From the NCBI RefSeq assembly GCF_002854065.1, contig NZ_CP024147.1: a stretch of 64,000 bases of DNA. One strand, 5' to 3'. A program made the position numbers and the translations under genes. This DNA is from Escherichia coli. GTDB taxonomy: Bacteria > Pseudomonadota > Gammaproteobacteria > Enterobacterales > Enterobacteriaceae. The notes under the pieces are model-generated. The model made no database searches. It saw nothing but the letters and a program-made list of their open reading frames with translations, and was not told the origin of the DNA. This document shows, piece after piece, positions 5,105-42,558 of this stretch (positions are counted from its first letter, which is position 1; each line of letters opens with the position of its first letter).

Positions 5105-5631
5105 ATAAAACCGCCAGAAATCAGGGCAAAGATAATCCGCATTCCGGGAGTTGTGAGCCTTTCAACTATTTCTATTTCCAACGGTGGTTTGGGCTTTATA
5201 TATTTTTTTCTGATGGACTCTTGCTCAGTTTTTAAATAAAAATGCAAACTAAATTGCTTCAATTAAATAAAATCCCGACTATTACTCGATACGTGATTAT
5301 TGTCGGTGATTTTTTTGTACACCATCAGTGTATATCTCAATAACCCCTGAATAAGTAGCTCTGAATAGGTATAAGGGATGTAGCCATTTTTAAATGGATT
5401 TCTTATGCTAAAAATGATCGTCGATTTCCCCATAAAATGTGAGCGATGCCGAAAGAAATAAAATTAGTTATTGCATTTGAAGTTTGGATGAAAGATTATC
5501 ATTTGTCATACAAATGAGGAGTGGTATGTTGCTAGCCAATTAAAAAAGAACGCCATATTTATTGATGATTGCTCCCCCGGTGGGGGGGAAACATCGGGCA
5601 TAAATGGGCATGAAGTAATGGAGTATTAGTT

Positions 5632-24859: not shown

Positions 24860-26242
24860 ATGAAAGAAAGCAATAGCCGCCGTGAGTTTTTGAGCCAGAG
24901 CGGTAAGATGGTCACCGCCGCCGCGTTGTTTGGTACGTCTGTGCCGCTCGCCCATGCGGCGGTAGCTGGCAACCTAAACTGCGACGCGAATAACACCATG
25001 AAAATCACTGACCCGCACTACTATCTCGACAACGTGCTGCTGGAAACCGGTTTTGACTACGAAAACGGTGTGGCGGTGTAGACCCGCACGGCGCGCCAGA
25101 CCGTGGAGATTCAGAACGGTAAAATTGTTGCGCTGCGCGAGAACAAGCAGCATCCGGACGCCACGCTGCCGCACTATGACGCTGGCGGTAAGCTGATGCT
25201 GCCCACCACCCGCGACATGCATATTCATCTCGACAAAACCTTTTACGGCGGGCCGTGGCGCTCACTCAATCGTCCGGCTGGCACCACCATTCAGGACATG
25301 ATTAAGCTCGAGCAGAAAATGCTGCCGGAACTGCAACCGTATACTCAGGAACGGGCGGAAAAACTGATCGATTTATTGCAGTCGAAAGGCACTACCATTG
25401 CCCGCAGCCACTGCAATATCGAACCGGTTTCCGGCCTGAAAAATCTGCAAAATTTGCAGGCGGTGCTGGCGCGACGTCAGGCGGGCTTCGAGTGTGAAAT
25501 TGTCGCCTTCCCGCAGCACGGTTTGCTGCTGTCGAAATCGGAACCCTTAATGCGCGAAGCAATGCAGGCAGGGGCGCATTACGTTGGCGGGCTGGACCCA
25601 ACCAGTGTTGATGGCGCGATGGAAAAATCCCTCGACACCATGTTCCAGATTGCGCTGGACTACGACAAAGGCGTCGATATTCACCTGCACGAAACCACTC
25701 CGGCAGGCGTGGCGGCCATCAATTATATGGTTGAAACAGTGGAGAAAACGCCGCAACTGAAGGGCAAACTGACCATCAGCCATGCCTTTGCGCTGGCAAC
25801 ACTCAACGAGCAACAGGTAGATGAACTGGCTAACCGGATGGTGGTGCAGCAAATTTCTATCGCCTCGACGGTGCCGATTGGTACGCTGCATATGCCGCTC
25901 AAACAGTTACACGACAAAGGCGTAAAAGTGATGACTGGCACTGACAGCGTTATCGACCACTGGTCGCCTTATGGTCTGGGCGACATGCTGGAAAAAGCCA
26001 ATCTCTACGCGCAGCTCTATATTCGTCCTAACGAACAGAACCTCTCCCGTTCGCTGTTTCTAGCCACTGGCGATGTATTGCCGCTGAATGAAAAAGGCGA
26101 GCGTGTATGGCCAAAAGCGCAGGATGACGCCAGCTTTGTGCTGGTGGACGCCTCCTGTTCCGCCGAGGCGGTGGCGCGTATCTCGCCGAGAACCGCAACG
26201 TTCCATAAAGGGCAACTGGTGTGGGGGAGTGTGGCAGGTTGA
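24860..26242 (+). pseudogene. yahJ: yahJ, Tat-signal amidohydrolase/deaminase, interrupted by in-frame TAG at 25079-25081
   Basis: ORF 24860..25081 encodes a twin-arginine signal peptide (SRREFLSQSG...AHA); same frame continues after the TAG into the amidohydrolase domain ORF 25103..26242 (HIHLDKT metal-binding motif). Confidence 0.8.
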
Positions 26243-33528: not shown

Positions 33529-33533
33529 GCTGA
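33529..33533. repeat. IS2 target-site duplication, left copy (GCTGA)
   Basis: Identical 5-mer immediately flanks both IS2 termini. Confidence 0.85.
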
Positions 33534-33544
33534 TGGATTTGCCC

Positions 33545-34450
33545 CTATATTTCCAGACATCTGTTATCACTTAACCCATTACAAGCCCGCTGCCGCAGAT
33601 ATTCCCGTGGCGAGCGATAACCCAGCGCACTATGCGGATGCCATTCGTTATAATGCTCGAACGCCTCTGCAAGGTTCTTTGCTGCCGTTAACCCGTCTGG
33701 TTTGGGCATGATACTGATGTAGTCACGCTTTATCGTTTTCACGAAGCTCTCTGCTATTCCGTTACTCTCCGGACTCCGCACCGCCGTGTTCTTCGGTTCA
33801 AGTCCCAACATCCGGGCGAACTGGCGTGTTTCATTAGCCCGGTAGCATGAACCATTATCCGTCAGCCACTCCACTGGAGACGACGGAAGATCGTTGCCGA
33901 AGCGGCGTTCCACCGCTCCCAGCATGACGTCCTGTACTGTTTCACTGTTGAAGCCGCCGGTAGTGACCGCCCAGTGCAGTGCCTCACGATCACAGCAGTC
34001 CAGCGCGAACGTGACACGCAGTCTCTCTCCGTTATCACAGCAGAACTCGAACCCGTCAGAGCACCATCGCTGATTGCTTTCTTTCACGGCCACTCTGCCT
34101 GTATGTGCCCGTTTCGATGGCGGTACAGCAGGTTTTCGCTCAAGCAACAGCGCATTCTGGCGCATGATCCGGTAAACACGTTTGGCATTGATCGCAGGCA
34201 TACCATCAAGTTCTGCCTGTCTGCGAAGCAGCGCCCATACCCGACGATAACCATACGTGGGCAGCTCTCCGATAACATGGTGTATACGGAGAAGCACATC
34301 CGTATCATCAGTGTGACGACTGCGGCGGCCATCCATCCAGTCATCGGTTCGTCTGAGAATGACGTGCAACTGCGCACGCGACACCCGGAGACAACGGCTG
34401 ACTAAGCTTACTCCCCATCCCCGGGCAATAAGGGCGCGTGCGCTATCCAC
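33545..34450 (-). CDS. insD: IS2 transposase OrfB (InsD), DDE integrase domain
   Basis: 301-aa ORF inside the IS2 element with IS3-family transposase catalytic domain. Confidence 0.9.
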
Positions 34451-34773
34451 TTTTTTGCCCGTCCATATTCAACGGCTTCTTTGAGGAGTTCATTTTCCAT
34501 CGTTTTCTTGCCGAGCAGGCGCTGGAGTTCTTTAATCTGCTTCATGGCGGCAGCAAGTTCAGAGGCAGGAACAACCTGTTCTCCGGCGGCGACAGCAGTA
34601 AGACTTCCTTCCTGGTATTGCTTACGCCAGAGAAATAACTGGCTGGCTGCTACACCATGTTGCCGGGCAACGAGGGAGACCGTCATCCCCGGTTCAAAGC
34701 TCTGCTGAACAATTGCGATCTTTTCCTGTGTGGTACGCCGTCTGCGTTTCTCCGGCCCTAAGACATCAATCAT
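34408..34773 (-). CDS. insC: IS2 OrfA (InsC), HTH transposase N-terminal protein
   Basis: ORF track 34408..34818; start at [18 protein letters not shown] (121 aa); overlaps insD in -1 frame as expected for IS3-family frameshift. Confidence 0.9.
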
Positions 34774-34864
34774 CTGTTCTCCAATGACTAGTCTAAAAAC
34801 TAGTATTAAGACTATCACTTATTTAAGTGATATTGGTTGTCTGGAGATTCAGGGGGCCAGTCTA

Positions 34865-34869
34865 GCTGA
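34865..34869. repeat. IS2 target-site duplication, right copy (GCTGA)
   Basis: See left copy. Confidence 0.85.
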
Positions 34870-37033: not shown

Positions 37034-38620
37034 TCAGCTTTTCAGCCGCCGCCAGAACGTCGTCCGGCTGATGCCTAAATAATTCGCCGCTGCTGTTTTA
37101 TCGCCATTAAATTTCTCCAGTGCCTGTTGTGGTGTCAGCAAGCGTGGAGCGGGAATTTTCGCCGACTCGCGCGCCAGTTCCGGCAGTAGCAGCTGCAAAA
37201 ACTGCGGCGTTAAATCCGGCGTCGGTTCCACACTTAAAAACAGCGCCAGTCGCTCCATCATATTGCGCAGTTCTCGAATATTGCCCGGCCAGTCGTAGCG
37301 CAGCAGCACAGTTTCACTTGCCTGTAACCCCTGGCGTAATGCAGCAGAAAATGGGGCGGAGAGCGCCGCCAGAGACACTTTCAAAAAACTTTCCGCCAGT
37401 GGCAGAATATCTGCCACCCGCTCGCGCAGTGGTGGCAATTGCAGACGCAAAATACTCAGCCGATAAAACAGATCACGGCGAAAACGTCCTTGCTGCATAT
37501 CTTCTTCCAGATTGCAGTGAGTGGCGCTAATGACCCGTACATCTACCGGAACAGGCTGATGCCCGCCGACGCGGGTGACCTCTTTTTCTTCCAGCACCCG
37601 TAACAGGCGAGTCTGCAAAGGTAGCGGCATTTCGCCAATCTCATCCAGAAACAGCGTACCGCCGTGGGCAATTTCGAACAGCCCGGCGCGACCTCCGCGT
37701 CGCGAGCCGGTAAACGCCCCTTCCTCATAGCCAAACAGCTCCGATTCCAGCAGCGATTCGGCTATCGCCCCGCAGTTGACGGCAACAAACGGATGCGACT
37801 TTTTGCCCTGTCGCGCATCGTGGCGGGCAAAATATTCCCGATGAATCGCCTGGGCCGCCAGCTCTTTGCCCGTCCCCGTTTCCCCCTCAATCAACACCGC
37901 TGCACTGGAGCGGGCATACAGCAAAATAGTCTGCCGTACTTGTTCCATCGGTGGTGATTGACCGAGCATATCGCCCAGCACGTAACGAGTACGCAGGGCG
38001 TTACGGGTAGCATCGTGAGTGTTATGGCGTAACGACATGCGCGTCATATCCCGCGCATCGCTGAACGCCTGGCGCACGGTGGCGGCGGAATAGATAAAAA
38101 TTCCGGTCATTCCGGCTTCTTCTGCCAGATCGGTAATCAGCCCCGCACCGACCACCGCTTCGGTGCCGTTAGCTTTTAGCTCGTTAATCTGCCCGCGTGC
38201 GTCTTCTTCGGTAATGTAGCTACGTTGGTCGAGGCGCAAATTAAAGGTTTTTTGAAACGCCACCAGTGCCGGAATAGTTTCCTGATAAGTGACAACGCCG
38301 ATAGAAGAGGTGAGTTTTCCGGCTTTTGACAGTGCCTGTAACACATCGTAGCCGCTCGGTTTAATCAAAATAACTGGTACTGACAGGCGGCTTTTCAGGT
38401 ACGCGCCGTTAGAGCCAGCAGCGATGATGGCGTCACAGCGTTCGTTTGCCAGTTTCTTGCGGATGTAGGTCACTGCTTTTTCAAAGCCAAGCTGAATAGG
38501 GGTAATGTTCGCCAGGTGATCAAACTCGAGGCTGATATCGCGAAACAGCTCGAACAGGCGCGTTACAGATACCGTCCAGATAACCGGTTTGTCGTCATTA
38601 AGCCGTGGTGGATGTGCCAT
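37034..38620 (-). CDS. prpR: sigma-54-dependent activator of propionate catabolism PrpR
   Basis: ORF track 37034..38632; start at MAHPPRL (528 aa); AAA+ sigma-54 interaction motifs ([14 protein letters not shown]) and C-terminal Fis-type HTH. Confidence 0.9.
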
Positions 38621-38806
38621 AGCGCACCGCAAAGTTAAGAAACCGAATATTGGGTTTAGCCTTGTTTCATAATTGTTGCAATGAAACGCGGTGAAACATT
38701 GCCTGAAACGTTAACTGAAACGCATATTTGCGGATTAGTTCATGATTTTATCTCTAACAAATTGAAATTAAAGATTTAATTTTATTAAGGCAATTGTGGC
38801 ACACCC

Positions 38807-38822
38807 CTTGCTTTGTGATTAT
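38807..38822 (+). promoter_or_regulatory. sigma-54 promoter of prpBCDE (TGGCAC-N5-TTGC)
   Basis: tggcacaccccttgct matches the -24 GG / -12 GC consensus exactly, 37 bp upstream of prpB start. Confidence 0.8.
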
Positions 38823-38858: not shown

Positions 38859-39749
38859 ATGTCTCTACACTCTCCAGGTAAAGCGTTTCGCGCTGCACTA
38901 AGCAAAGAAACCCCGTTGCAAATTGTTGGCACCATCAACGCTAACCATGCGCTGCTGGCGCAGCGTGCCGGATATCAGGCAATTTATCTCTCCGGCGGTG
39001 GCGTGGCGGCAGGGTCGCTGGGGCTGCCCGATCTCGGTATTTCTACTCTTGATGACGTGTTGACAGATATTCGCCGTATCACCGACGTTTGTTCGCTGCC
39101 GCTGCTGGTGGATGCGGATATCGGTTTTGGTTCTTCGGCCTTTAACGTGGCGCGCACCGTGAAATCGATGATTAAAGCTGGTGCGGCAGGATTGCATATT
39201 GAAGATCAGGTTGGTGCGAAACGCTGCGGTCATCGTCCGAATAAAGCGATCGTCTCGAAAGAGGAGATGGTGGATCGGATCCGTGCGGCGGTGGATGCGA
39301 AAACCGATCCTGATTTTGTGATCATGGCGCGCACCGATGCGCTGGCGGTAGAGGGGCTGGATGCGGCGATCGAGCGTGCGCAGGCCTATGTTGAAGCGGG
39401 TGCCGAGATGTTGTTCCCGGAGGCGATTACCGAACTCGCCATGTACCGCCAGTTTGCCGATGCGGTGCAGGTGCCAATCCTCGCCAACATTACCGAATTT
39501 GGCGCCACGCCGCTGTTTACCACCGACGAATTACGCAGCGCTCATGTCGCGATGGCGCTGTACCCGCTTTCAGCGTTTCGCGCCATGAACCGCGCCGCCG
39601 AACATGTCTACAACGTCCTGCGCCAGGAAGGCACGCAGAAAAGCGTCATCGACACCATGCAGACCCGCAACGAGCTGTACGAAAGCATCAACTACTACCA
39701 GTACGAAGAGAAGCTCGACGACCTGTTTGCCCGTAGCCAGGCGAAATAA
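38859..39749 (+). CDS. prpB: 2-methylisocitrate lyase PrpB
   Basis: 296 aa; PEP mutase/isocitrate lyase family motifs. Confidence 0.95.
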
Positions 39750-39769
39750 AAAACGCCCGTTGGTTGTAT

Positions 39770-39860
39770 TCGACAACCGATGCCTGATGCGCCGCTGACG
39801 CGACTTATCAGGCCTACGGGGTGAACTGTAGGTCGGATAAGACGCATGGCGTCGCATCCG
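39770..39860. repeat. REP elements between prpB and prpC
   Basis: gcctgatgcgccgctgacgcgacttatcaggcctac and tgtaggtcggataagacgcatggcgtcgcatccgac REP-type palindromes. Confidence 0.8.
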
Positions 39861-39904
39861 ACAACAATCTCGACCCTACAAATGATAACAATGACGAGGA
39901 CAAT

Positions 39905-41073
39905 ATGAGCGACACAACGATCCTGCAAAACAGTACCCATGTCATTAAACCGAAAAAATCTGTGGCGCTTTCTGGCGTTCCGGCGGGCAATACGGCGCTC
40001 TGCACCGTGGGTAAAAGTGGCAATGACTTGCATTACCGTGGCTACGATATTCTTGATCTGGCGGAACATTGCGAATTTGAAGAAGTGGCGCATCTGCTGA
40101 TCCACGGCAAACTGCCGACCCGTGACGAACTCGCCGCCTACAAAACGAAACTGAAAGCCCTGCGCGGTTTACCGGCTAACGTGCGTACCGTGCTGGAAGC
40201 CTTACCGGCGGGTCACACCCGATGGATGTTATGCGCACCGGCGTTTCCGCGCTCGGCTGCACGCTGCCAGAAAAAGAGGGGCATACCGTCTCTGGCGCGC
40301 GGGATATTGCCGACAAACTGCTGGCGTCACTTAGCTCGATTCTTCTCTACTGGTATCACTACAGCCATAACGGCGAACGCATCCAGCCGGAAACCGATGA
40401 CGACTCCATCGGCGGTCACTTCCTGCATCTGCTGCACGGCGAAAAGCCGTCGCAAAGCTGGGAAAAGGCGATGCATATTTCGCTGGTGCTGTACGCCGAA
40501 CACGAGTTTAACGCTTCCACCTTTACCAGTCGGGTGATTGCGGGCACCGGCTCTGATATGTATTCCGCGATTATTGGCGCGATTGGCGCACTGCGCGGGC
40601 CGAAACACGGCGGGGCGAATGAAGTGTCGCTGGAGATCCAGCAACGCTACGAAACGCCAGACGAAGCCGAAGCAGATATCCGCAAGCGCGTGGAAAACAA
40701 AGAAGTGGTCATTGGTTTTGGGCATCCGGTTTATACCATCGCCGACCCGCGCCACCAGGTGATTAAACGTGTGGCGAAGCAGCTCTCGCAGGAAGGCGGC
40801 TCGCTGAAGATGTACAACATCGCCGATCGCCTGGAAACGGTGATGTGGGAGAGCAAAAAGATGTTCCCCAATCTCGACTGGTTCTCCGCTGTTTCCTACA
40901 ACATGATGGGCGTTCCCACCGAGATGTTCACACCACTGTTTGTTATCGCTCGCGTCACCGGCTGGGCGGCGCACATTATCGAACAACGTCAGGACAACAA
41001 AATTATCCGTCCTTCCGCCAATTATGTTGGACCGGAAGACCGCCAGTTTGTCGCGCTGGATAAGCGCCAGTAA
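39905..41073 (+). pseudogene. prpC: prpC (2-methylcitrate synthase) with -1 frameshift near 40205-40215
   Basis: Frame from ATG 39905 (MSDTTILQNSTHVIKPKK…) leaves the citrate-synthase sequence after …VLEALPA and stops at 40537; remainder ([13 protein letters not shown]… to KRQ) is in the -1 frame (ORF 40222..41073). Confidence 0.8.
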
Positions 41074-41106: not shown

Positions 41107-42558
41107 ATGTCAGCTCAAATCAACAACATCCGCCCGGAATTTGATCGTGAAATCGTTGATATCGTCGATTACGTGATGAACTACGAAATCAGCTCCAAAG
41201 TGGCCTACGACACCGCACATTACTGCCTGCTCGACACGCTCGGCTGCGGTCTTGAAGCTCTCGAATACCCGGCCTGTAAAAAACTGCTGGGGCCAATTGT
41301 CCCCGGCACCGTCGTACCTAACGGCGTGCGCGTCCCCGGAACTCAGTTCCAGCTCGACCCCGTCCAGGCGGCATTTAACATCGGCGCGATGATCCGTTGG
41401 CTCGATTTCAACGATACCTGGCTGGCGGCGGAGTGGGGGCATCCTTCCGACAACCTCGGCGGCATTCTGGCAACGGCAGACTGGCTTTCGCGCAACGCGG
41501 TCGCCAGCGGCAAAGCGCCGTTGACCATGAAACAGGTGCTGACCGGAATGATTAAAGCCCATGAAATTCAGGGCTGCATCGCGCTGGAAAACTCCTTTAA
41601 CCGCGTCGGCCTCGACCACGTTCTGTTAGTGAAAGTGGCTTCCACCGCCGTGGTCGCCGAAATACTTGGCCTGACCCGCGAGGAAATTCTCAACGCTGTT
41701 TCGCTGGCGTGGGTGGACGGTCAGTCGCTGCGCACCTATCGCCATGCGCCGAACACCGGCACGCGTAAATCCTGGGCGGCGGGCGATGCCACTTCCCGCG
41801 CGGTACGTCTGGCACTGATGGCGAAAACGGGCGAAATGGGTTACCCGTCAGCCCTGACTGCGCCTGGGTGGGGCTTCTACGACGTCTCCTTTAAAGGTGA
41901 GTCGTTCCGCTTCCAGCGTCCGTACGGTTCTTACGTGATGGAAAATGTGCTGTTCAAAATCTCCTTCCCGGCGGAGTTCCACTCCCAGACGGCAGTTGAA
42001 GCGGCGATGACGCTCTATGAACAGATGCAGGCAGCAGGCAAAACGGCGGCGGATATCGAAAAAGTGACCATTCGCACCCACGAAGCCTGTATTCGCATCA
42101 TCGACAAAAAAGGGCCGCTCAATAACCCAGCAGACCGCGATCACTGCATTCAGTACATGGTGGCGATCCCGCTGCTATTCGGGCGCTTAACGGCGGCAGA
42201 TTACGAGGGCAACGTTGCGCAAGATAAACGCATTGACGCCCTGCGCGAGAAGATCAATTGCTTTGAAGATCCGTCATTTACCGCTGACTACCACGACCCG
42301 GAAAAACGCGCTATTGCCAATGCCATAACCCTTGAGTTCACCGACGGCACGCGCTTTGAAGAAGTGGTGGTGGAGTACCCCATTGGTCATGCTCGCCGCC
42401 GTCAGGATGGCATTCCGAAGCTGGTCGATAAATTCAAAATCAATCTCGCGCGCCAGTTCCCGACTCGCCAGCAGCAGCGCATTCTGGAGGTTTCTCTCGA
42501 CAGAACTCGCCTGGAACAGATGCCGGTCAATGAGTATCTCGACCTGTACGTCATTTAA
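41107..42558 (+). CDS. prpD: 2-methylcitrate dehydratase PrpD
   Basis: 483-aa ORF, MmgE/PrpD family. Confidence 0.95.

Follow-up and report, generated by a model that had tools for sequence, protein, structure and literature searches.

In Escherichia coli and Salmonella, 2-methylcitrate synthase ("citrate synthase II", family NF009006) is encoded by prpC within the prpBCDE operon, and the regulatory gene prpR lies divergent from it. The structure of Salmonella PrpC has been solved (3O8J) and is matched over residues 1-388 by the intact relative of the gene studied here. In enterobacteria, PrpR activates prpBCDE only with 2-methylcitrate, and propionate itself is not the inducer; PrpE and PrpC convert propionate to 2-methylcitrate, which then serves the activator (PMC5566544). 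Gene, operon, regulator, and pathway are textbook material, and the finding described here is a private frameshift allele of this well-known gene. We conclude that prpC in this strain is probably a very young pseudogene, formed when codon 103 lost one C in a real event private to the strain.

The prp locus and the frameshift in prpC

The window, by which we mean the whole 64-kb stretch of DNA that was analyzed, is a segment of the E. coli chromosome that holds rcl-ykg-bet-yah, prpR/prpBCDE, codBA, cynRTSX, lacAYZI, and mhp, as established by near-identity to annotated complete genomes. It keeps the locus and gene order of the known systems, with prpR divergent from prpB-prpC-prpD-prpE and a sigma-54 promoter consensus at the operon. 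The features of the locus are as follows.

37034..38620, minus strand: prpR, sigma-54-dependent activator of the prp operon; intact, 528 aa; NF011953, 1000.3 bits against a cut-off of 703
38797..38811, plus strand: sigma-54 (−24/−12) promoter consensus TGGCACaccccTTGC, upstream of prpB; the sole match in the window, predicted by consensus
38859..39749, plus strand: prpB, 2-methylisocitrate lyase; intact, 296 aa; NF008455, 560.2 bits against a cut-off of 353
39905..41073, plus strand: prpC, 2-methylcitrate synthase, frameshifted; between prpB and prpD
41107..42558, plus strand: prpD, 2-methylcitrate dehydratase; intact, 483 aa; NF006943, 918.3 bits against a cut-off of 575
42598..44484, plus strand: prpE, propionate--CoA ligase; intact, 628 aa; TIGR02316, 1301.2 bits against a cut-off of 827.4

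The operon does not hold four intact enzyme genes, since prpC is frameshifted; prpB, prpD, and prpE are intact. The closest complete genome is CUWW06 (NZ_CP182139.1). Over the 64 kb, 17 substitutions separate it from the window (a count that sets aside two mismatches at an IS1 junction), together with three indels and differences in IS content. In the alignment of the two, prpR shows zero differences.

The spacers around these genes carry arrays of REP/BIME-type palindromic repeats, at 39750-39900 between prpB and prpC and at 44500-45230 between prpE and codB. The latter repeats a unit of about 94 bp some 7-8 times, with a similarity of roughly 90-94% between copies, and gives rise to spurious repeated open reading frames on both strands. 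The prpB-prpC spacer measures 155 nt in the window against 439 nt in a K-12-type strain (L001).

Read from its ATG at 39905, prpC runs for 210 codons to a TGA at 40535-40537, as both the sequence and the list of open reading frames show. A second, free-standing reading frame in the −1 register extends from an ATG at 40222 (Met107) to 41073 and encodes 283 aa (...KRQ). The gene therefore divides into the parts listed below.

39905..40211, plus strand: 5' part of prpC in the native frame, codons 1-102 (MSDTT...VLEALPA) and the first G of codon 103
40211..40212, plus strand: the lesion, one C absent between these two positions; CCGGCGGCGTCAC in the relatives, CCGGCGGGTCAC in the window
40212..40537, plus strand: out-of-frame part of the original frame, 108 junk codons (...PLPVG) with the TGA at 40535-40537, from the list of open reading frames
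40212..41073, plus strand: 3' part of prpC in the −1 frame, native codons 104-389; zero nucleotide differences from the intact CUWW06 allele

Alignment to CUWW06 places the lesion precisely, the window reading GGCGGGT where the intact allele reads GGCGGCGT. In codon terms, GCG GCG TCA has become GCG G-GT CA through loss of the C. Aligned strains 100416 and XJ34 carry GC at this site as well, as CUWW06 does. Over the whole gene, which lies at the orthologous position, the comparison with CUWW06 returns one gap and zero substitutions, so that its intact prpC (protein WP_001285909.1) is identical to the nucleotide sequence of the window save for the one missing base. The first-pass annotation had placed the break in 40195-40225, most closely at 40208-40212, with the frame native through ...VLEALPA and the remainder in the −1 frame, and the sequence, the reading frames, and the alignment all bear this out. 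Its description of a single-base frameshift in an otherwise intact operon likewise holds, given a missing C located by alignment to the relatives, four flanking prp genes of full length whose scores exceed the curated cut-offs, and a sigma-54 consensus in place. It had further proposed a comparison with prpC of related strains, in which the window proves one C short of CUWW06, 100416, and XJ34, and had taken the intact gene to be a single 389-codon frame; inserting the C in the sequence restores it.

Measured against the E. coli and Salmonella gene, the window prpC lacks the C of codon 103, has lost the single 389-codon frame, and is left with two pieces that both fall below the family cut-off. 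The 2-methylcitrate synthase equivalog model NF009006 has a curated cut-off of 550 bits, and membership needs one polypeptide over the whole model. The N-terminal piece matches profile positions 2-91 with 150.1 bits and the C-terminal piece positions 95-376 with 543.4 bits, and neither qualifies as a PrpC equivalog. The His/His/Asp motifs, which we take to be the catalytic residues of the citrate-synthase fold, are found only in the −1-frame reading frame and are missing from the product of the native start. The lesion appears recent, because the rest of prpC shows zero secondary decay, as do prpB, prpD, and prpE.

The frameshift might in principle be bypassed, either by programmed −1 frameshifting or transcriptional slippage or because the two pieces act as a split enzyme. 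The arrangement of the frames would allow for this, as neither the 0 nor the −1 frame meets a stop codon in the 355 nt from 40180 to 40534, and a −1 slip there would give a near-full-length product. The elements that such mechanisms use are missing, however: 40180-40534 holds no slippery heptamer of the form X XXY YYZ, no homopolymer longer than 6 occurs anywhere in prpC, and no Shine-Dalgarno-like sequence precedes the ATG at 40222, where the upstream sequence is AAGCCTTACCGGCGGGTCACACCCG. Termination-reinitiation coupling at that ATG is not available either, since the upstream frame ends 315 nt after it, and the relatives do not share the two-frame arrangement, those examined having a single 1170-nt frame. 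With neither slippery heptamer, long homopolymer, nor Shine-Dalgarno, all three forms of bypass were rejected. To judge from the sequence, it is very unlikely that prpC is read by programmed frameshifting or that its pieces form a functional split enzyme, and the chance that any form of bypass operates is close to nil.

Distribution of the allele

The deletion allele of prpC is private to this strain. A 121-nt query centered on the lesion has no exact match among the 5,426 complete RefSeq E. coli genomes, of which 5,210 contain the region; the best match reaches 99.2%, or 121/122 with one gap. A search with full-length prpC recovers at least 80% of the gene from 5,209 genomes. Of the full-length matches, 39 were taken at even steps along the ranked list, and each measures 1170 nt, one more than the 1169 nt of the window. 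The frameshifted product, from either possible start, finds no exact match in a collection of 15 billion proteins, and neither the 100,044 GTDB species representatives nor the JGI metagenome contigs contain the exact 33-mer across the deletion. The gene as such is wholly absent from about 4% of complete E. coli genomes.

Two candidate sources of further occurrences were considered and rejected. The first was a set of 23 contigs that encode the exact 283-aa C-terminal reading frame; an exact-match look-up selects such contigs by construction, and they do not support the allele. One of them (L004) carries an intact GGCGGCG, with a gap of scaffold Ns upstream, and the others listed start within three bases of a contig end, their first bases having been inspected in one case (L005). 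The second was a shared lineage allele among other PrpC proteins with a −1 shift and a length of about 210 aa, which a homology search with the frameshifted product returned; each is shifted elsewhere, and none after ALPA.

These public proteins resemble the product described here in size and ending. A group of E. coli-type PrpC sequences (P0001-P0012) carries −1 frameshifts and mostly ends at the same out-of-frame stop as the window prpC, at about 210 aa, but the shift positions of these and of other disrupted alleles (for example P0027, P0028, P0031, and P0055) all differ from that of the window. The other public frameshifts arose separately or are errors, and do not go back to a single allele shared by a lineage. 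Public assemblies also hold many PrpC proteins that were truncated, frameshifted, or deleted internally in independent events (P0027, P0028, P0031, P0038, P0055, P0062, and P0051), and the disrupted set includes K-12-type alleles along with a Salmonella Typhi allele with an internal deletion. One protein (P0015) leaves and regains the frame repeatedly along its length and resembles the product of an error-rich assembly; artefactual prpC frameshifts do occur in databases, as these repeated shifts indicate.

Mutation or assembly error

An allele known from one assembly raises the question of whether the missing C is instead a sequencing, assembly, or polishing error, in which case prpC of the strain would be an intact gene of 389 codons and its methylcitrate cycle would work. 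Several observations are consistent with an error. The allele is in no other assembly searched, it differs from the closest intact allele by a single base, and a private allele without secondary decay is also what a consensus error would look like. The context of the lesion is G+C-rich (GGCGGCG), and such a context can lose a base to Sanger compressions or polishing mistakes. Public assemblies, moreover, hold many scattered and unrelated −1 frameshifts in prpC, among them the seemingly error-ridden P0015.

The nature of the lost base and the state of the surrounding assembly point the other way. A homopolymer-length error miscounts a run that exists in the true sequence, but the intact GGCGGCGT has a lone C between Gs and no homopolymer at this site, and the GGG run seen in the window is the product of the deletion. 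The deletion is accordingly no homopolymer-length change. Differences were polarized against CUWW06, 100416, and XJ34, and over the 61,408 positions covered in common the window carries eight private small changes in total relative to these three relatives. The prpC deletion is the sole private 1-bp indel among them, and there is no private homopolymer-length change in the window over the same positions. A G7 versus G6 polymorphism at 5582 finds the window siding with two of the three relatives. Similar indels are thus not scattered through the compared 61,408 positions, and on these two counts the assembly looks clean. Finally, the same region holds disruptive mutations that are real, namely an IS2 with its target-site duplication, a 12-bp deletion, and nonsense alleles shared with relatives.

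A real mutation is favored because the site has no homopolymer, the assembly looks clean, and the lineage carries other private lesions as well as older nonsense alleles shared with independent assemblies; an error in the consensus is a doubtful reading, although one with some weight. The first-pass annotation had noted a GCGGG run near the lesion and had judged a homopolymer-associated error equally possible. The run is indeed present in the window, but it was created by the deletion, and with GGCGGCG in the intact allele and zero private homopolymer-length changes over 61 kb, error is the less likely reading. A frameshift can lie beside a G run without being a homopolymer artefact, as the relatives show here that the run itself arose from the deletion.

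The window has further lesions of its own. An IS2 element lies on the minus strand in yahL (33534-34864; orfA of 136 aa, orfB of 301 aa), flanked by a 5-bp target duplication, GCTGA, at 33529-33533 and 34865-34869. None of the three closest complete genomes has this IS2, which is therefore private to the window lineage, and an insertion with its target duplication cannot be an artefact. Near its 3' end (23743/23744), yahG has a private in-frame deletion of 12 bp that reads GCTGGTGCGAAC in the relatives and shortens YahG from 472 to 468 aa. Two other genes carry one internal stop codon each: yahJ, an amidohydrolase gene (24860-26242, plus strand), in common with CUWW06 and 100416, and the gene for a GlxA-family regulator adjoining lacI (57799-58752, minus strand), shared with CUWW06 only. 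Because their stops are shared with independent assemblies, both are real, older pseudogenes of the lineage. Together with yahL and prpC, they bring the disrupted genes in 64 kb to four.

The closest relative has private lesions of its own. In CUWW06 (L002/L003), a C>T change creates a TAG stop in codB (window position 45689), G7 has become G6 upstream of ykgE (5582), and there are three private IS1 copies, one at the yahE/fdrA junction, one downstream of betT, and one inside an aldo/keto reductase gene. None of these private lesions is present in the window. Tip-specific gene loss is common in this clade, and in a lineage that accumulates unpurged, mildly deleterious changes, one more loss-of-function allele is unsurprising.

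The six private SNPs of the window (13492, 20689, 32229, 60050, 62038, and 63501) are all G:C>A:T transitions, and five are non-synonymous (betT T2I, yahE G247R, yahK H169Y, mhpA P451L, and mhpC E63K). The proportion, 6/6 in the window against 14/33 of the SNPs private to the sister strains (Fisher p = 0.012), could reflect a biased mutational process such as deamination, alkylation, or long storage, or could be chance, six being too few to carry weight. On a further reading, the loss of prpC is real and has a particular cause: it was selected, as it stops the formation of growth-inhibitory 2-methylcitrate or silences the operon in a propionate-rich habitat, or it was part of a G:C>A:T-biased burst of mutation. 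A burst would suggest a mutagenized strain, a long-stored strain, or a deamination-type mutator defect. We consider this reading improbable.

Consequences for propionate metabolism

If prpC has been lost by a real deletion, as we favor, translation from the native start would yield 102 native residues followed by 108 nonsense residues. This product is predicted to be inactive because the catalytic motifs lie only in the −1 frame, and that frame lacks a separate ribosome-binding site; from family knowledge one would expect no active 2-methylcitrate synthase. The 2-methylcitrate cycle would then be blocked at its committed step and, by the established enterobacterial pathway, growth on propionate would not be expected. 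Any 2-methylcitrate would come only from a side activity of the housekeeping citrate synthase.

The loss is expected to reach the other genes through the regulator. Because PrpR needs the 2-methylcitrate made by PrpC, the whole operon, prpE included, should stay uninduced; a prpC null would be short of co-activator, with prpB, prpD, and prpE left uninduced, and would not run a futile PrpE-only pathway. This runs counter to the earlier expectation that PrpE still makes propionyl-CoA, as prpE depends on the same activation by PrpR with 2-methylcitrate (PMC5566544). Propionyl-CoA would probably come mainly from other enzymes. The regulatory consequence is carried over from the Salmonella and E. 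coli K-12 literature and should apply here by analogy. In Pseudomonas aeruginosa, propionate reportedly becomes growth-inhibitory when propionate catabolism is disrupted (PMC9765439), and a similar sensitivity is plausible in this strain by the same kind of analogy.

Polarity on the downstream genes may add to these effects. The premature stop lies about 536-569 nt upstream of prpD, and the 569 untranslated nt that follow it are C-poor relative to G until about 40850; the C/G ratio rises to 1.3-1.5 only over roughly the final 250 nt. This base composition is suggestive at most. Both prpD and prpE may be subject to Rho-dependent polarity, which would be of little consequence once the committed step is lost.

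A real deletion would mean that the strain should not use propionate and is probably more sensitive to it, and that prpC is to be annotated as one pseudogene and not as two genes. The importance of the allele goes little beyond the annotation and phenotyping of one strain, and no new biology is implied.

A deliberate counterpart of this genotype is found in engineered strains. In the polyketide host BAP1, prpRBCD has reportedly been deleted and prpE placed under a T7 promoter so that propionyl-CoA accumulates. Knock-outs of this type and the window have in common that PrpC is lost and prpE is retained. They differ in the control of what remains: prpE of the engineered strains is driven by a foreign promoter, whereas prpE of the window still depends on PrpR and 2-methylcitrate and should therefore not be induced.
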